From a virus: DNA of 15,356 bases. The notes under the pieces are model-generated. The model was given only the letters and a program-made list of their open reading frames with translations, was not told the origin of the DNA and did no database searches. Shown here one piece after another: positions 4,786-15,356 of this stretch; position 1 is the stretch's first letter, and each line of letters begins with the position of its first letter. The stretch lies in UHGV virus genome UHGV-1950618. One strand, 5' to 3'. Both the position numbers and the translations under genes were made by a program.

Positions 4786-5221
4786 TCCAGTCTCCTTCAC
4801 ACTTTTCAATCATAAACTGACGTTCTATGCAGTCATTGATAGGGAAAATGCGATAAAGCGGATTCAGGCGGCAATTACCGTTAGTCAATGTGACCTTTAG
4901 ATCCCACTTCGCTGGCTCAAGATATTTCGTGTCGATGAGCAAATATTCTTCTCTCTCACCGCGTTTTGACGCGTCAACTGGTCTGGTTTTCCCCGAAATA
5001 ACCACAGATGGATTTTTCAAGTCCTGCAACCAATATTCGATTTGTGCATTGCTTACCCAGCTTCGTTTAACGCGAAGCGACACAGGAAACGCTATAGCAG
5101 ACTCTTTCACTACAGCTTCGCCAATGCTCAAAATATCAACACTCTTGCGACGAAATAAGAAACGGTCAATAACGGCAACAAATGCCATGATAAAAATGAA
5201 ATAATTTCCAAAGTCACCCAT
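4775..5221 (-). CDS. 148-aa protein with one N-terminal transmembrane helix; candidate holin regulator (antiholin/LydB-like by position)
   Basis: TAATG stop/start overlap with the upstream holin-like gene. Hydrophobic segment NYFIFIMAFVAVIDRFLF at aa 6-23 followed by a Cys-containing soluble domain; no lysozyme or coiled-coil spanin signature. Confidence 0.45.
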   Translation of the reverse strand: MGDFGNYFIFIMAFVAVIDRFLFRRKSVDILSIGEAVVKESAIAFPVSLRVKRSWVSNAQIEYWLQDLKNPSVVISGKTRPVDASKRGEREEYLLIDTKYLEPAKWDLKVTLTNGNCRLNPLYRIFPINDCIERQFMIEKCEGDWNVK

Positions 5222-5547
5222 TACTTCTCTCCACCTTTTCCCCCACTCGCTATTACGCTTAAGAGATTCAAGACGTTACTAGCTCTGGACTTCAAGCCCT
5301 GTAAAATTTCACTTCCGTTGTTACTGGCAATCAGAACAACGCAGTAAATGATGCCTTCCGGCCATTCATAGCTATCAGCCACCCAAAACCCCGCAAGCCC
5401 GGCAGTTACCGCAGTAAACAATTCACTCGCGAGGTTGAGCAGTGACGCAGAAATGCGCCCGTCTCTAACTCCGAGAAGGAATACGCCGGTTCCACTCAGC
5501 AGGGATGTTATGACTGCTACAGCCAGATTTTCATAATCTGCAAACAT
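5221..5547 (-). CDS. 108-aa three-TM membrane protein, class I holin-like (LydA-like by position)
   Basis: Three hydrophobic helices (aa ~8-27, 36-57, 65-85) and a charged C-terminal tail ending KGGEK; ATG preceded by GGAGGGG. First gene after a ~460-bp spacer. Confidence 0.5.
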   Translation of the reverse strand: MFADYENLAVAVITSLLSGTGVFLLGVRDGRISASLLNLASELFTAVTAGLAGFWVADSYEWPEGIIYCVVLIASNNGSEILQGLKSRASNVLNLLSVIASGGKGGEK

Positions 5548-5859
5548 ACCCCTCCAGAAATGACGTTTAACGCGGCTTCAACTTATCCAGTTTGTTATTT
5601 CCCGACTAAATGCCATTCACACAAAATGGATGCATATGATGGCCCGGTGGTCCGTAAACCTCGTCACTCAGAGCGTGGAGGATGCCAAATTCGCGTATCA
5701 ACAAAATGGTCCAAACACGGCTTTAAAGAGAAATACGCTTGAATGCGCAAGATGTGAGCTGATTCTTGAGGACAAAATGATGACATGTGAGTCTTCACAA
5801 GCGTCATTCAGTGAATATAATGCCCCCCTCTCAGATACCACTAACTGAGTGTTCATTTT

Positions 5860-5893
5860 GCCCGCCGTCATTGACTGGACGGCGGCTTTTTTG
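5860..5893 (+). terminator. plus-strand intrinsic terminator with no convincing plus-strand gene upstream
   Basis: 8-bp GC stem CCGCCGTC/GACGGCGG (5862-5869 with 5878-5885), 8-nt loop, then C plus TTTTTT (5887-5892). Confidence 0.7.
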
Positions 5894-5942
5894 TACCAAA
5901 GGATTGTATTACTAAAAAAGGTCACAAAAGCACTCACTAATA

Positions 5943-5965
5943 AAGCCCTCAACAAAAGAGGGCTT
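5943..5965 (-). terminator. candidate terminator downstream of the tail-fibre assembly gene
   Basis: 8-bp stem AAGCCCTC/GAGGGCTT with 7-nt loop, 43 nt after the tfa stop; on the minus strand followed by UAUUAGUGAGUGCUUUUGUGACCUUUUUU (interrupted U tract). Confidence 0.5.
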
Positions 5966-6007
5966 GAAATATCAAAAAAGCAGTGCTGATTGGATTGTTA
6001 TGATTGT

Positions 6008-6430
6008 TTATGCAGGCATCTCAGGCCATGAGATATCTGCATCAACAGAAGTGTCAACTCTATTAAGAAGAACTCTATACCTCTTTAACTTTGTCAACAT
6101 TTCTATTTCCTCATCAGTGGCAATATCCATATCAACAGCATCCTGAAGCGTTGATATTTTTATGCTCACATCATTCATAAGACTACTTTTGGTGTTTTCA
6201 GCAATGCTGACTCTATCCTCTAAGCTCATAGGTTGTGGGTCAGATAACATTGGATAACCATCGCCATTTGCAATTATTATTTTCCCATTGCCATACCCTG
6301 ATAACAATTCATCATATAAGTCATCAGGTATATGTACAGCATCGGACGGCCATGAACCGTTTTTATCGTAATCTTCTTTTAGTCTATCGTCGTAGAAACC
6401 ACCAGTATCTTTGCTGTAATACTTTGCCAT
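6008..6430 (-). CDS. tfa: tail fibre assembly chaperone (Tfa / P2 gpG / P1 U family)
   Basis: C-terminus KLKRYRVLLNRVDTSVDADISWPEMPA matches the conserved Tfa C-terminal signature (KYRVLLNRVDTS...WP). Lies directly downstream of the tail fibre gene; AT-rich. Confidence 0.85.
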   Translation of the reverse strand: MAKYYSKDTGGFYDDRLKEDYDKNGSWPSDAVHIPDDLYDELLSGYGNGKIIIANGDGYPMLSDPQPMSLEDRVSIAENTKSSLMNDVSIKISTLQDAVDMDIATDEEIEMLTKLKRYRVLLNRVDTSVDADISWPEMPA

Positions 6431-6461: not shown

Positions 6462-9089
6462 TTAATACCCATAAGCAACATACTGTGCATATACTTTATC
6501 AGTAGAGCTACTTTTTACTGTAAAACCAGTGGCTGAGTTGTTGTATGTATAAAGAATTGCATTAACAGCATTCCCGCTATTAGGTGAAATCACAACTACC
6601 GCACACGCCTCAGGAAAAGCAGTCGGAAATTTAACTACGCTTCCTGGAGTAACAGCCGCTATAATCCCCCACTGCATCATCACCTTAGTTGATGTATCCT
6701 TATGCCATCCATGAATGTTGGCATATGCTGTGTTTTTAGCCTGATATTTCGTGTTGAAATTACTATAGTTACCAGGGGTAATCTGACCAGCGGCAGATAA
6801 ATTCCCCATAACCCTTACATGACCATCAGCACGTCCTAATTCTACGCGACCATCACCGCCATCTATCTTTAATGGAGTGTAAACGACATCACCATTAACA
6901 TTTTGCCCAGTGGTTGATATCTGGAAACTATATCCAGTATTAGTTATTAGGAATCCATAGTTATTATTATAAGTTAGGCGTATAGCATTTTGGCTGCTGG
7001 ATATAATTTCACCGGTAACAGTACCACCTGTTGTTGGTAACGCACCAACATGACTTGCCGTTAATGTGATATCTGCAGAACCATCAAACTTAACACCGTT
7101 GATTGTGCGGGCTGTTTGCAGTTTTGTAGCGGTTGCAGCATTACCTGTTGTGTTCTGGTTACCGGCAATGTTCACACCCGGCAGGTTGATATTGGCGCTG
7201 CCATCAAATGCCACCCCGCCGATTGTGCGTGCCGTCTGAAGTTTTGTTGCGGTTGCAGCATTACCGGTTGTGCTCTGATTACCTGTTTTATTAACGCCCG
7301 GCAGGTCGATATTGGCGGTGCCATCAAATGCCACCCCGCCGATCGTTCGGGCCATCTTGAGCTTTGTGGCAGTATCTGCGTTTCCCGTCAAATTACCTGT
7401 AATGCCACCACTAACTGTTACCCCATTACCGATGGACACCAACCCGGTTCTTAAATTTATAGCAAAAGGTCTTAATGGGCCGATGTCACCATTTTCTCCC
7501 TCACCTTCATTTGTCGGGATAAGATGAAGATATTCCTCGGATCTCCTGAAGATAAGGCCAAAGTCCTGGTTAAATATTCGAAGGGCATTTATTGTGCCAA
7601 TTTTTAGCTGCCCCCCCATTGTGTCGCCAGAACGCTGAACTGCGTTACCAGCTTGAGAAGCAATATCCGTTAAGCCAAGATCTTCAGGGGTCAGAGTAAT
7701 ATCTGCCGACCCATCAAATGCCACACCGTTAATCTTTCTGGCTGTTTTTAATTTCGTCGCAGTATCGGCGTTCCCGGTCAGCGTACCAGTGATCCCCGCG
7801 CTGAAAGTCTGGCGTGCACTCCAGGTATTAGCTGTGCTCAACAGGGGGAGCTTTTCTCCGCTGGTTCCGAGTTCTCTTAAACCAAGGTATTGGATAACAG
7901 CCAGTGTGCTTGTTTTAGCAAGAATATCGCGACCGACTGACGTTAAATCAGTCTGGGCTACAGTGTCTGTTCCGGTAAAGTACGGTAATTTATTTGCCCC
8001 CGTCGCCAGGTCAGCGAGCGCGGTTAAGGTTGCGTCGAGAGGCTGCTTACCTGCCAGGGCATTTGTCATTGTAGCCGCAAAGTTCGGGTCATTGCCCAGC
8101 GCCGCAGCAAGCTCATTAAGAGTATCAAGAGCTTCTGGTGATGAGCCGACCAATGCAGAAATAGCGGCACGAACATAAGCGGTTGTTGCAATCTGAGTGT
8201 TGTTCGTACCTTGTGACGCTGTAGGCGCTGTTGGCACCCCTGTAAATGCCGGGCTTAATAACGGTGCTTTAAGAGCTAAAGCAGCATTAATCGTCTGGCT
8301 AAACTGAGGATCATTGTTAATTGCATCTGCAATTTTTTTCAGCGTATCCAACGCTGAAGGAGAACCATCAATAAGGGCGGTTATTGCGGCCTGAACAAAG
8401 GCAGTGTTTGCGATTTGTGTACTGTTTGTACCTTGTTCCGGAGTTGGAGATTTAGGTATACCAATAAACTCCGGGCTATCAACCGGAGCTTTTAGTTTGT
8501 TTAACGTGCTGATAGCAAGAGGTGTTGCGGCTTTATATTCTTCGTCACTATCCAAAGCACTGGAAAACTCAACACCAACAGCACGATTAGCACGATATTC
8601 AGTGCTAATCATATCTGCGGTAACGGCTTGAGCATTGTCAGGCACGATCACGCGGCATAGCTCAATCTGGTTAGATGCTATTTCCTCATCAACGAGAGCA
8701 ATAATTCTCGCTGCGCTAATATCCGATGAGCTATCTACCTGGCTGGTTTTCACTCCATGTTCGTAATTAGCTTCAAGAACGATGATTGTCGTTACACCAG
8801 CTTCTACAGGAACAAGAACATCACTGACTTGCTGCACGGATATCTGACATTTACCCACGTCAATTGAAGCCGCCCCTCTTCCCTCTGTTTTCTCGGATGT
8901 AATACGCACAAACAGACCATCCCCTGGCACCGGTTCAAACCCACAGTACACTCCGGGCAGAACGATATTTTTCATCTTCCTGTTTAGAGCTTCGGTGCTA
9001 TACAGCTCAAAGTATTGCATGTCTGCAATTAGTGGAGCGGAAATGTCCGAAGATAAGGTGACAATATTCTTTACTTTATCTGCGCACAT
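6462..9089 (-). CDS. tail fibre protein (875 aa)
   Basis: Characteristic fibre repeats: two ~75-aa units (PxxSPxFxG.P..P....GTN.TQIA.TA.V.AAI.AL..SP.ALDTL...A.A..NDP.F) and four ~40-aa units (TGNA.TATKL.TAR.I.GV.FDGSA.I.L). ATG start 2 nt after the upstream stop. Followed by tfa. Confidence 0.9.
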   Translation of the reverse strand: MCADKVKNIVTLSSDISAPLIADMQYFELYSTEALNRKMKNIVLPGVYCGFEPVPGDGLFVRITSEKTEGRGAASIDVGKCQISVQQVSDVLVPVEAGVTTIIVLEANYEHGVKTSQVDSSSDISAARIIALVDEEIASNQIELCRVIVPDNAQAVTADMISTEYRANRAVGVEFSSALDSDEEYKAATPLAISTLNKLKAPVDSPEFIGIPKSPTPEQGTNSTQIANTAFVQAAITALIDGSPSALDTLKKIADAINNDPQFSQTINAALALKAPLLSPAFTGVPTAPTASQGTNNTQIATTAYVRAAISALVGSSPEALDTLNELAAALGNDPNFAATMTNALAGKQPLDATLTALADLATGANKLPYFTGTDTVAQTDLTSVGRDILAKTSTLAVIQYLGLRELGTSGEKLPLLSTANTWSARQTFSAGITGTLTGNADTATKLKTARKINGVAFDGSADITLTPEDLGLTDIASQAGNAVQRSGDTMGGQLKIGTINALRIFNQDFGLIFRRSEEYLHLIPTNEGEGENGDIGPLRPFAINLRTGLVSIGNGVTVSGGITGNLTGNADTATKLKMARTIGGVAFDGTANIDLPGVNKTGNQSTTGNAATATKLQTARTIGGVAFDGSANINLPGVNIAGNQNTTGNAATATKLQTARTINGVKFDGSADITLTASHVGALPTTGGTVTGEIISSSQNAIRLTYNNNYGFLITNTGYSFQISTTGQNVNGDVVYTPLKIDGGDGRVELGRADGHVRVMGNLSAAGQITPGNYSNFNTKYQAKNTAYANIHGWHKDTSTKVMMQWGIIAAVTPGSVVKFPTAFPEACAVVVISPNSGNAVNAILYTYNNSATGFTVKSSSTDKVYAQYVAYGY
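7050..7440 (-). repeat. three tandem ~120-nt coding repeats inside the tail fibre gene, plus a fourth dispersed copy at ~7680-7799
   Basis: Near-identical DNA units are visible at ~7081-7200, 7201-7320 and 7321-7440. GVAFDG is encoded at 7320-7337 and again at 7710-7727 (checked by reverse-complement translation). Confidence 0.85.
8040..8495 (-). repeat. two consecutive ~75-aa fibre repeats (coding)
   Basis: aa ~199-272 and 273-350 of the fibre share the same motif order; the corresponding DNA at ~8161-8280 and ~8341-8460 is visibly similar. Confidence 0.7.
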
Positions 9090-12313: not shown

Positions 12314-15300
12314 TTAATCCTCCAGTAATTTGTCAAGAGATGGGTCATTGATAGTCGTGCTGGCACGCTGACGAGGTTGTGGTTGTGATGTGTTCACAAC
12401 TTTGTCCTGATCGCCTTTTCGGTTGTCTTTGCTTACGCCAAGAATCTCTTTGAGAACGGAATAAACGTTCTCCAGTGCTTTCAACATAGCCGGATCGTTA
12501 TTTGCGGTATCTGTTGTTAGCATCTGCCTTATTCCGCTTCGTGCGAGGTCCGTGACGATTGGTAGCTGCGGAGGCATTGCAAGGAACGGTTCTTTAGCAG
12601 CCACGCCCGAAGCAAACAGGCTTTGATTGATTGCGCCAGTTGTGTCCCTGATCGTATCCGCCGTTTTCTGTATGCCACCATTCAGCCAACCGCCAACACT
12701 CCTTGTTAACGGACTAATAGCGCGAGCAACATCGGTATTCTGTCCAGAGGACTGCAATACAAAGTCATTTAACATTCCGGTGCTATCAATACCGCCCACA
12801 AGTCGCGAGAGGTTATCTCCAACGGCGGGGAGGACGGCGGAGCCTACCTGGTTAAGCCCTGACACAGTTGAATCAAATAGCGAGCCAAAGAAGCCCCTGT
12901 CCTCACCTTCAACCACCTTGTAGCCGTTGTCGTACATCTGCACACCCGCCGGTGTCGATGTGGCACGCTTCTCGCTGATGGTTGCCGGACTCTCCGGAAG
13001 CAGGCCAATGGTTTCTGTATCGCGGTTAACGTTGCGCTTTTGCTGTATAGCCGTAGTGATATCGGCGATCTGTTCCGCCTTCTGGAAACTAAAGTTTTTG
13101 CCCGTTGCTCTGGATATTTTTTCAACAAGAAACTTATCCAATTGCTTGGCTTTTGCTGCTAACGAGGACATCTCTTCCGGAGAACTGACAGGGCCGAGAT
13201 TTAGCCCCATATTGGGATCTCCCCCAACTATCCCGGCGATGACGCCCCCAACACCGTCTGCACTCATTAACCGCTCCGTCAATCCGGCTGCGGCGGAAGA
13301 ATTGCCACTAGCTTTCGCGTGGCTGATCGCCTGGGCATTTTCCTGTTGAGCTGCCTTCGGTTTTTTAGCTGCCTGTGCGTGTTGAACCACGTCAGTAGGG
13401 CTAGGCATTACAGCCTGGGCTACGCTTGACGCAGGAATAGCAGAAGATGAGCCGTTGGCGTATTTGACTTTGCTACCGACACTATATTGGGAGTTGCGAG
13501 CGATTAGAGGACCGCCCTTTTCCTTCTGGATTTTATTAATGTGTTCCAGCGTTTCATCATTGAATTGCCCTTCCCAACGCCCAGTTTTAGCGTTGAATGA
13601 ACCAAGAGCTGTTTTGATGAAATTGTTGTTAACCGCCGGGTTACCCCCCTCCTTCGTCGCAATGGCGCGAACAAGGTGCGTCATAACTTCAGGGTTGCTA
13701 ACGTCTATTTTATCGTTGGGGGATACCCCGAGATATTTGCTGACGTTTTCAATGTACTGATTGGTGTTGTTCTCTGTTGGTGGTGCCCATTTTGAAATGA
13801 TGCTGGATACTGTTTGCAGCTTCTGATACCCGGCGGCAGCACTTGTACCGTTGTAATAACTCGATACCTGGTTTGCCAATGCCCGAATCCCTTCTTCGGG
13901 CGTATTAAACCGCGCAAAACGCTGTTCGCCTTTCGCGTTCGGCGCTTCCAGTACCGCCCCCTCCTGATTTGCAAAAACCAGGTTCCCCAGGTTGTTATTC
14001 CGGTAATTCCTGTTCTTGGCGTTGCTTCCGCCTATATTCAGATCAGCCGTTATTGTATTTTTTTCAGGCGCTTTAAATTCGTCTGGCGATTTGTAGCCGT
14101 GTTCACCCACGCCATCCTCACCTCTGCGCCCGCCCTGTAGCTGTCGGGCCAGATCATTAATTGCGGCTACCGTTTGCTTGGTGCCATCTTCAACGGCTTT
14201 CTTAACCTGCGCAGTGCCTTCGCTGCTTGATGAGAACGATTCTTTTAGGCTGCTGAATGCGTTCTTCGACGCGTCGATAGAACTATTTATGCCGCGAGCG
14301 ATATTGCTGGTATCAAGACTCTGAAGTTTTTGTCCGACACCTTCAAAGCCTAGCGCGGACATCCCCTCGCCAATGAGGTTAGCCGCTCCCGTCACCAGAC
14401 CGCCCATATCCAGGACGTTAGCAGCGGCGTAGGCGCTCTTTTGCTGTGTTGTAACGTCCTGCCCTTCCTTCAGGTTATAAGTCGCCCTCTGCGCTTCTGT
14501 GTCGCTGTAGCCGTCTACGGCATCATAACCAACCATAGCCACCTGGCCGATGACTGGAATCGCCCTGAATCCGGCCCTTGCGGCAACACCTCCGGCAGCT
14601 TTGAGAGCCACTTTTCCAGCTTCTTTTTTCGCGATGGTTTCACCAGTGGCAACGGCAACCTTACCCGCCTCTTTCCTGGTAAGGCTTTCCCCAGCGAAAG
14701 TTGCCGCTTTACCAGCGTCTTTCCCTGCCGCTCCACCAGTCACCGTTTTGGCTACACTTTCTTCAGTGACCTTACCTGCTCTGGTTTTAACTGAAGATTT
14801 ATCACCCGATGATTTTGGTGAGGTACTACCCTCGTTCCCACCAGCATTTTTTGTCCGATTTTTTTCCTCGCCCGCACTGTTGTTTTTGCCTGGCTGATTT
14901 TTTTTCCCCTCTTTGCCTTCCTGACTCCTGCCCGTCTCAGTAGGTTTGCTGGTGTTTTTTCCCTTCTTGCCCTTGTTTTCTTTACTGTCTCCAGTGCGGC
15001 CCGTGTTGCCACCACGTGCACTGCTACGACCGCGTGTAGGGGATATTTTGGTACGTAATCCGCCACCGCCGAGGAGGTCGCTCAGTTTTAGCCCACTCTC
15101 CTGCGACTTTCGTAGTTTCCGGATCTCTTCGGATACAGTTTCCAGCTCATCAATTATCTGGCTGTCGTTGCGTTGAAGAACTTTCGTTTGTTCTTCGATC
15201 GCACGTACAGATTTTTCTTTAACGGCTTCAGTAAATGCCTTTGCTGAACCGGGCGCGTTATCTGGAGTCTTCCTTTCATTGTCAGGTGCCGGGTAAGTAA

Positions 15301-15356
15301 TGGCGGGGGGGTTTTTGGCCCCCCGCGGCGCCCCCCCCCCGCCCTTTGCCCTCTCT
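12314..15356 (-). CDS. tail tape-measure-like large virion protein, partial (N-terminus off-window; possibly P1 Sit-like)
   Basis: I checked every in-frame triplet from 14744 to 15356 and found no stop, so the 809-aa track ORF (GTG at 14743) is an internal start artefact; at least 1013 codons lie in the window. It has Gly/Ala-rich segments, a Lys/Gly/Glu-rich low-complexity region, a coiled-coil-like stretch, and directly precedes the baseplate genes. Confidence 0.65.
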   Translation of the reverse strand, partial: ERAKGGGGAPRGAKNPPAITYPAPDNERKTPDNAPGSAKAFTEAVKEKSVRAIEEQTKVLQRNDSQIIDELETVSEEIRKLRKSQESGLKLSDLLGGGGLRTKISPTRGRSSARGGNTGRTGDSKENKGKKGKNTSKPTETGRSQEGKEGKKNQPGKNNSAGEEKNRTKNAGGNEGSTSPKSSGDKSSVKTRAGKVTEESVAKTVTGGAAGKDAGKAATFAGESLTRKEAGKVAVATGETIAKKEAGKVALKAAGGVAARAGFRAIPVIGQVAMVGYDAVDGYSDTEAQRATYNLKEGQDVTTQQKSAYAAANVLDMGGLVTGAANLIGEGMSALGFEGVGQKLQSLDTSNIARGINSSIDASKNAFSSLKESFSSSSEGTAQVKKAVEDGTKQTVAAINDLARQLQGGRRGEDGVGEHGYKSPDEFKAPEKNTITADLNIGGSNAKNRNYRNNNLGNLVFANQEGAVLEAPNAKGEQRFARFNTPEEGIRALANQVSSYYNGTSAAAGYQKLQTVSSIISKWAPPTENNTNQYIENVSKYLGVSPNDKIDVSNPEVMTHLVRAIATKEGGNPAVNNNFIKTALGSFNAKTGRWEGQFNDETLEHINKIQKEKGGPLIARNSQYSVGSKVKYANGSSSAIPASSVAQAVMPSPTDVVQHAQAAKKPKAAQQENAQAISHAKASGNSSAAAGLTERLMSADGVGGVIAGIVGGDPNMGLNLGPVSSPEEMSSLAAKAKQLDKFLVEKISRATGKNFSFQKAEQIADITTAIQQKRNVNRDTETIGLLPESPATISEKRATSTPAGVQMYDNGYKVVEGEDRGFFGSLFDSTVSGLNQVGSAVLPAVGDNLSRLVGGIDSTGMLNDFVLQSSGQNTDVARAISPLTRSVGGWLNGGIQKTADTIRDTTGAINQSLFASGVAAKEPFLAMPPQLPIVTDLARSGIRQMLTTDTANNDPAMLKALENVYSVLKEILGVSKDNRKGDQDKVVNTSQPQPRQRASTTINDPSLDKLLED
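15301..15356. other. homopolymer-rich window edge (G7, T5, C6, C10 runs), likely a sequencing or assembly end artefact
   Basis: tggcgggggggtttttggccccccgcggcgccccccccccgccc is atypical for the surrounding coding sequence and sits at the extreme end of the window. Confidence 0.4.

Follow-up and report, generated by a model that had tools for sequence, protein, structure and literature searches.

Introduction

Tape-measure proteins with muralytic motifs have been described for phage T5 (Pb2) and mycobacteriophage TM4 (Tmp), both cited in PMC9024508. In phage P1, Sit was found to be a virion protein with the use of LC-MS/MS and was assigned as the tape-measure protein (PMC9024508; also PMC12810830), an assignment that rests on size, helicity and proteomics (PMC9024508), and its SLT domain, at about residues 750-900, was proposed as the source of tail-associated muralytic activity (PMC9024508). 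Another muralytic module is known from Hafnia phage Enc34, the ORF39 of which defines PHA02564, an all-helical fold like the alpha-lobe of lysozyme (PMC8943055). The Enc34 domain was muralytic in experiments on E. coli, P. aeruginosa and Hafnia, and its active site comprises the catalytic Glu131 together with Tyr95 and Trp79 in the groove (PMC8943055). Tape measures with wall-degrading domains, the role of P1 Sit and the Enc34 fold are all already established, and that understanding stands. The subject of the present work is a sit-like gene at the end of UHGV virus genome UHGV-1950618, a stretch of 15,356 nucleotides which is referred to below as the window and is assigned to a D6/P1-like phage-plasmid. 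The gene very probably encodes a Sit tape-measure protein in which an Enc34-type domain serves as a local entry lysin and a basic tract forms a disordered linker.

A Sit-Like Reading Frame Open to the Window Edge

An earlier note on this DNA had described a large virion protein of tape-measure type, the frame of which ran beyond the called open reading frame (ORF) to the edge of the window. Both points were borne out, the former by Sit homology and synteny and the latter by translation of the window, in which 1013 sense codons were read on the minus strand from 15355 to 12314 before a TAA at 12314-12316, with no stop or frameshift in the frame and with homology to Sit in the part upstream of the called ORF. 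The other two minus-strand frames over 12314-15355 are closed by many stops, and the plus-strand translation of 12314-15356 is likewise full of them. The features that define the gene and its limits are as follows.

12314..15355, minus strand: 3' part (3042 nt) of the sit-like gene for the tape measure, with 1013 codons and TAA (open frame, PHROG 7182, D6 Sit, plasmid ORFs)
14741..14743, minus strand: GTG (Val205), spurious start of an 809-aa ORF call, with homology running on upstream
15308..15356, minus strand: apparent contig-end miscalls, G/C homopolymer runs (megablast end, alignment, raw sequence)

The encoded protein matched PHROG 7182 ("tail injection transglycosylase") with E = 0 over profile positions 249-1228, and D6 Sit ("tail injection transglycosylase", YP_009914717.1, 1260 aa) with 64% amino-acid identity over residues 19-1013. 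Two blocks were shared with P1 Sit by BLASTP: residues 238-388 corresponded to P1 376-523 (47% identity, E = 1e-33) and residues 933-1008 to P1 1056-1134 (30% identity, E = 6e-4). Both homology to P1/D6 Sit and the conserved place in the baseplate/tail operon (pmgB-sit-pmgA-bplA-16-R-S), the marks of a Sit-type protein, were found here. Judged from its sequence, the frame is the C-terminal 1013 residues of the Sit tail tape-measure protein of a D6/P1-like phage-plasmid, a myovirus kept in E. coli as a plasmid prophage.

The mechanical ORF list gives only 12314..14743 (809 aa), because the GTG at 14741-14743 is the first start-like in-frame codon inside the window; it is also the sole in-frame ATG, GTG or TTG within the first 210 in-window codons. 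That list, and the visible corruption of the extreme window end, could be taken to mean that the locus is a pseudogene or an assembly artefact and that the only real gene is the 809-aa ORF, but this was considered extremely improbable, since the 204 codons upstream of the GTG are free of stops and align to PHROG 7182 from residue 14 and to D6 Sit from residue 19, seven complete plasmids hold the same sequence inside an intact 1255-aa ORF, and the corruption is confined to the last ~47 nt and includes no indel. The 809-aa call is regarded as a mechanical artefact and the GTG as a spurious start, the real initiation codon lying elsewhere. As the intact ORF that contains the window's sit-like sequence in near-identical plasmids such as NZ_CP085065 (99.4-99.6% DNA identity, ~90 kb, E. 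coli) is 1255 aa long, ~242 N-terminal residues lie off-window, and residue N445 of the in-window protein is N687 of the full-length protein.

The window end itself (15310-15356) is rich in G/C homopolymers (…ggcgggggggtttttggccccccgcggcgccccccccccgccctttgccctctct), and the megablast matches end at query 2996 (window 15309) in all seven near-identical plasmids. Alignment to the coding sequence (CDS) of NZ_CP085065 is base for base over this end, with no indels and many substitutions to G, and in-window residues 1-16 read ERAKGGGGAPRGAKNP where the reference reads ...IDNGNDKAAGAPVVAKA. These last ~47 nt look like contig-end or read-end miscalls, and the first 16 in-window residues are therefore unreliable and should be ignored.

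An Enc34-Type Domain within the Sit-Like Protein

A folded domain had been suspected at about 13619-14026, and a discrete domain was located at 13616-14023. The following features belong to it.

13616..14023, minus strand: predicted Enc34-type (PHA02564) peptidoglycan-hydrolase domain, residues 445-580 (sequence, fold, active-site residues)
13787-13789 (W523), 13754-13756 (Y534) and 13649-13651 (E569), minus strand: putative catalytic-site codons (HMMER alignment, codons verified)
13982-14002, minus strand: RNNNLGN motif, N-terminal in the domain
13481..13615, minus strand: conserved extension after the lysin domain, residues 581-625, modelled as helix, β-hairpin and helix (AlphaFold2, AF2)

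Searches of the in-window protein against Pfam and NCBIfam gave no meaningful match (none at E < 1 in Pfam), the Enc34-type family being absent from those libraries. Residues 445-580 matched PHROGs annotated as endolysin, tape-measure protein and head protein, with phrog_873 covering 445-576. When the PDB sequences were searched with phmmer, matches were obtained to 7q47_A, the endolysin catalytic domain of Hafnia phage Enc34 (E = 3e-17, query 20-148 vs chain 5-137), and to 9vvp, the N-terminus of the 1295-aa protein Gp29 (E = 8e-14). In the HMMER alignment, E569 (ATKEGG), Y534 (NQYIEN) and W523 (SKWAPP) fall on RHENG, TAY and RWAPP of Enc34, that is, on Glu131, Tyr95 and Trp79. An AF2 model of residues 436-625, for which a 53-sequence alignment from the Enc34-type family profile search was used, had a mean predicted local distance difference test score (pLDDT) of 75, rising to 83-96 in the core, and Foldseek against the PDB returned 7q47 as the sole significant match (E = 1.6e-7, probability 1.0). 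By sequence, by modelled all-helical fold and by catalytic residues, residues 445-580 are assigned to the Enc34-type family (PHA02564, "structural protein P5").

The check for a peptidoglycan hydrolase that the earlier note had proposed was thus positive, and the domain searches returned more than tape-measure repeats. The companion check, for fusogenic domains, came back empty: neither transmembrane nor fusogenic segments were found with Kyte-Doolittle hydropathy in 19-residue windows, the maximum of which was 1.29, with no window above 1.3.

The conserved extension that follows the lysin domain had pLDDT values of 70-86 over model residues 140-180 in the AF2 model made with the alignment, and is 76-78% identical to D6-type relatives. 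Enc34 ORF39, a protein of 26 kDa, belongs to a lysis cassette and has a membrane domain of two helices at its C-terminus, whereas the domain in the window is internal to a tail protein of >1200 aa, has no membrane domain and is extended at its C-terminal side by these extra ~45 conserved residues.

Comparison with P1 Sit and Other Ejected Proteins

No match to the SLT/GH23 profile (PF01464) was obtained in the in-window protein, in full-length D6 Sit or in the full-length 1255-aa relative, while P1 Sit (YP_006507.1, 1140 aa) in the same Pfam search gave SLT at 748-867 (91.6 bits, E = 3.4e-26). This is in keeping with the earlier remark that no E-S...GLMQ motif was visible, and truncation of the gene is not the cause, as the full-length relatives also lack SLT. 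The idea that an SLT domain was hidden in the missing N-terminus was likewise rejected, given these relatives and the position of the P1 domain, which is not N-terminal. Because no SLT domain is present in the window or in the full-length relatives, the label "transglycosylase" is doubtful, and this inherited name is probably a misnomer.

The protein is like P1 Sit in its gene position, in its homologous core and C-terminal block and in being a presumed tape measure and tail-associated muralytic enzyme. It is unlike P1 Sit in having an Enc34-type domain in place of SLT and in its long basic tract, which P1 is without. Between the two shared blocks lies a ~530-aa segment with no homology to P1 Sit detectable by BLASTP. 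The globular region had previously been termed an insert; a distinct domain it is, but not an insertion, since the whole of this segment differs from P1 Sit.

A short likeness was seen between the catalytic-Glu helix, ATKEGGNP (window 13643-13657), and the catalytic Glu-Ser region of P1 SLT, ATESGGNP (P1 768-775), in a non-significant BLAST segment. The likeness may go back to the distant relationship between GH23 and GH73 that PMC8943055 proposes, or it may be chance.

Orthologues of the window protein are D6 Sit and the products annotated "transglycosylase" in E. coli/Salmonella phage-plasmids of ~90 kb (e.g. WP_164930535.1 in NZ_CP085065), which have the same position (pmgB-sit-pmgA-bplA) and the same architecture. 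Domain identity to the D6-type orthologues is 96-100%, and the whole protein is 99+% identical to the NZ_CP085065 type and 59-64% identical to D6. Relative to D6-type Sit, the basic tract of the window lineage is longer by 21-35 residues, and the N- and C-terminal thirds have diverged.

Among other ejected proteins, Gp29 (9vvp, 1295 aa) is an ejectosome protein of a Kayfunavirus (T7-like; the phage was identified by tblastn) and carries the same Enc34-type domain. Its domain is N-terminal, however, and it is a core protein of a podovirus rather than a tape measure. T7 gp16 has an SLT domain at the position where Gp29 has the Enc34-type domain, and the same alternation between SLT and Enc34-type domains is therefore found in another phage group. 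The wall-degrading modules of T5 Pb2 and TM4 Tmp are unrelated to the Enc34-type catalytic module.

Conservation and Distribution of the Enc34-Type Domain

The domain is the best-conserved segment of the protein, being 95.6-96.3% identical to its counterparts in D6, pSL26_91 and pLD93-1, the whole proteins of which are 59-63% identical. A homologue search with the single domain gave only seven proteins and was repeated with an alignment of diverse members. The resulting 8-member family profile retrieved at least 7952 proteins at E ≤ 1e-5, and HMMER over 1.84 billion cluster representatives (50% identity) returned 6962 clusters at E ≤ 1e-3. All of the best 25 clusters (E ≤ 1e-30) are long with the domain internal, 24 being of 1095-1455 aa and one of 688 aa. 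The best 150 of the 6962 representatives comprise 33 of at least 1000 aa, 90 of 400-999 aa and 27 that are shorter, so the domain is embedded in a protein of at least 400 aa in 123 of these 150. Within the same set, the catalytic Glu is kept in 150/150, the Tyr in 143/150, and W, Y or F at the Trp position in 145/150. Although this fold was described in 2022 as an endolysin, it is mostly embedded in long virion proteins among the nearest relatives.

The domain was also found in internal protein B of podovirus PBR31, in proteins in tape-measure position of myovirus vB_EcoM-683R1 and Providencia phage PSTCR3, and as a stand-alone endolysin beside holin and spanin genes (VogelGryff). In the literature library that was searched, no paper was found to connect Enc34-type domains with either tape-measure proteins or D6 Sit.

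In PLSDB, the D6-type domain is carried at ≥80% identity by ~114 plasmids and the P1-type SLT segment, at the same threshold, by ~413. Every listed record with the D6-type domain has an overlapping CDS named "transglycosylase". The annotation of more than 100 complete PLSDB phage-plasmids and of phage D6 is concerned here, as the protein is labelled with a name inherited from P1 sit. These comparisons also show that the muralytic module is exchanged between the tape measures of phage-plasmids that are close relatives.

Two further observations were made among plasmids. The 95.6 kb Acinetobacter venetianus plasmid CP060164 (L010:1775-5602) encodes a syntenic Sit-like protein of 1275 aa with a 61%-identical Enc34-type domain, its gene having pmgB-like, pmgA-like and baseplate genes on its flanks; the tail modules of D6-type phage-plasmids therefore reach outside the Enterobacterales. 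In addition, ~800 further PLSDB plasmids encode a short Enc34-type protein of ~41% identity, annotated as "structural protein P5" or "membrane protein". These plasmids are mostly ~100-120 kb, non-mobilizable and from Klebsiella (e.g. ~110 kb), Enterobacter and E. coli, and the short protein is probably the endolysin of another phage-plasmid group.

Proposed Role and Competing Explanations

By analogy with what has been proposed for P1 SLT, the most likely role of the domain is local peptidoglycan digestion during tail penetration. Sit would lie inside the tail tube and baseplate hub and be expelled on sheath contraction. Its Enc34-type lysozyme-like glycosidase domain would cut the peptidoglycan locally, with Glu569 as the catalytic acid and Tyr534 and Trp523 positioning the glycan, and the tube and DNA would then cross the periplasm. 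The Enc34-type domain would thus do in the D6-type lineage what SLT (GH23) does in P1 Sit. A separate gene of D6 encodes a 162-aa lysozyme-like protein, and the lysis genes lydA/lydB are present in the window; the Sit domain is therefore not needed as an endolysin.

Several points weigh against this account. The lysin domain begins 57 residues past the core, whereas P1 SLT begins 225 residues past it, and the difference from P1 is the replacement of a long segment, not a clean exchange of one domain for another. In the motif RNNNPGN, Pro has given way to Leu in this protein (RNNNLGN). The tape-measure role is carried over from the P1 arguments (length, helicity, gene position), Sit was not resolved in the P1 cryo-EM maps (PMC12810830), and the whole-protein AF2 model (pLDDT 40) is too poor to serve as strong support for either helicity or disorder. 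The bond cleaved by Enc34 was itself only deduced, as that of a GH73-like N-acetylglucosaminidase by analogy (PMC8943055), and for the present protein muralytic activity at entry, bond specificity and the role of the tract are likewise drawn from analogy.

The Pro to Leu change also speaks for a rival reading, in which the Enc34-like domain is catalytically dead and has a structural or peptidoglycan-binding role, for example as a plug or anchor of the baseplate hub, with another virion protein digesting the wall. The Trp position is Tyr or Phe in 20 of the 33 giant homologues, and another lysozyme-like protein of D6 is annotated as "baseplate hub subunit and tail lysozyme". A dead module was nevertheless judged improbable. 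The near-invariance of Glu, Tyr and an aromatic residue at the Trp position among the best 150 representatives, given above, argues for a working active site, the domain is the most conserved part of an otherwise fast-diverging protein, and the free-standing homologous domain is enzymatically active (PMC8943055). The name of D6 orf16 is an automatic label, and this 162-aa protein is encoded away from the tail genes, beside regulatory genes. An active domain might instead work mainly late in infection, as an endolysin or lysis helper supplied by unassembled Sit and not at entry, and most named members of the family are indeed endolysins encoded beside holin and spanin genes (VogelGryff, Enc34/Chi-like phages; PMC8943055). 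This was thought less probable still: the domain lies about 62% of the way along a tail protein of >1200 aa, the gene for which stands among those of the baseplate, the lysis functions named above are available from lydA/lydB in the window and from the separate lysozyme-like gene in the relative D6, and the analogous SLT of P1 Sit is regarded as a tail-associated entry enzyme (PMC9024508). The reading as a tape measure with a local entry lysin and a disordered linker was retained as very likely.

A wider proposal, which is regarded as rather unlikely, is that the alternative non-homologous entry-lysin cassettes of D6- and P1-type tape measures (probable GH73-like glucosaminidase vs GH23 lytic transglycosylase) might affect which hosts or physiological states (peptidoglycan modification, stationary phase) can be infected, and that the basic tract ~300-350 residues upstream, kept in position but not in sequence, might be a functional electrostatic element that grips the tube lumen or the DNA end, not a neutral spacer.

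The Basic Tract and the Remaining Segments of the Protein

Outside the lysin domain and its extension, the following segments were distinguished.

15062..15307, minus strand: conserved segment (…EEQTKVLQRNDSQIIDELETVSEEIRKLRKS…), residues 17-98, predicted single long helix (D6-type Sit, partly P1)
14771..15061, minus strand: basic tract, residues 99-195, the most variable in sequence and length (composition, entropy, charge-hydropathy)
14570..14770, minus strand: Ala/Gly/Lys-rich segment with repeated KEAGKVA, residues 196-262, leading into the core (translation)
14192..14644, minus strand: Sit core common to P1 Sit, residues 238-388 (BLASTP, tblastn to P1-family sit, PHROGs 2533/21630/24683)
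12317..12559, minus strand: C-terminal block common to P1 Sit, residues 933-1013 (BLASTP)

A Lys/Gly/Glu-rich disordered tract had been reported at about 14800-15060. A basic low-complexity tract is present at 14771-15061, but its composition is G/K/S/T/N-rich and not K/G/E-rich (G 18.6%, K 17.5%, S 13.4%, T 10.3%, N 9.3%, R 8.2%, E 7.2%). Its net charge is +16 over 97 aa, its entropy is 3.32 bits (whole protein, 3.95 bits), and each of the 40-aa windows that start at residues 101, 121 and 141 has 0-1 of I/L/M/F/V/W/Y. In a charge-hydropathy calculation the tract comes out well within the range of disordered sequences, and it has no secondary structure in the AF2 model, which is of low confidence. 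A tandem repeat was searched for in the DNA under the tract and none was found. As the least conserved segment, it shows 20-27% identity and 21-35 gaps relative to other D6-type Sit proteins and is nearly absent from P1 Sit. Even so, a very basic stretch returns in about the same place: of the 33 Sit-like representatives of at least 1000 aa, 31 have their most basic and least hydrophobic 80-aa window upstream of the lysin domain, commonly near residues 326-468. The tract is read as an intrinsically disordered, fast-evolving linker in which positive charge is kept and sequence is not; an electrostatic contact with the tail-tube lumen or the DNA end would be speculation.

The conserved segment before the tract has a helix at model residues 22-70 in the single-sequence AF2 model, again at low confidence. 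The Ala/Gly/Lys-rich segment is 21-52% identical to D6-type relatives, and the Sit core contains two mildly hydrophobic Gly-rich stretches, at 257-275 and 310-328. The C-terminal block is 79-82% identical to D6-type relatives and 48% identical to the Acinetobacter homologue. Single-sequence AF2 of the whole fragment gave many helices, with a mean pLDDT of 39.9 and a predicted template modelling score (pTM) of 0.22, and shows a rough secondary-structure pattern at most.

The Phage-Plasmid and Its Neighbouring Genes

Phage D6 is matched by about 45% of the window at 79% nucleotide identity, and P1 S by a tail-fibre segment. The nearest relatives of the sit-like gene are the seven complete plasmids, at 98.9-99.6% DNA identity (megablast, plasmid collection), which are ~90-94 kb, non-mobilizable and from E. 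coli and E. marmotae. When the phage collection was searched with the gene by megablast, no match was obtained, and only tblastn and the plasmid collection yielded relatives.

Downstream of the sit-like gene, and on the same strand, lie genes for a PmgA-like protein (PHROG 1896), baseplate BplA (1369), gp16 (2015), R (2032) and the tail fibre S, and beyond S, homologues of U, lydA holin, lydB, hdf and darA are present in the window. The order sit-pmgA-bplA-16-R-S is identical in the window, P1 and D6, and a pmgB-like gene lies upstream of sit in the near-identical plasmid NZ_CP085065.

The lydA-like holin gene (5221-5547) and the U-like tail-fibre assembly gene (6008-6430) are ~460 bp apart (5548-6007). 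In D6 the interval between the same genes is occupied by cixL, the invertase gene cin and the invertible tail-fibre segment S'/U', and the element, judged from this interval, appears to be without an invertible C segment. The tail-fibre gene S (6462-9089) encodes 875 aa; the S product is longer in D6 (939 aa) and in NZ_CP085065 (1169 aa), a plasmid that is otherwise nearly identical.

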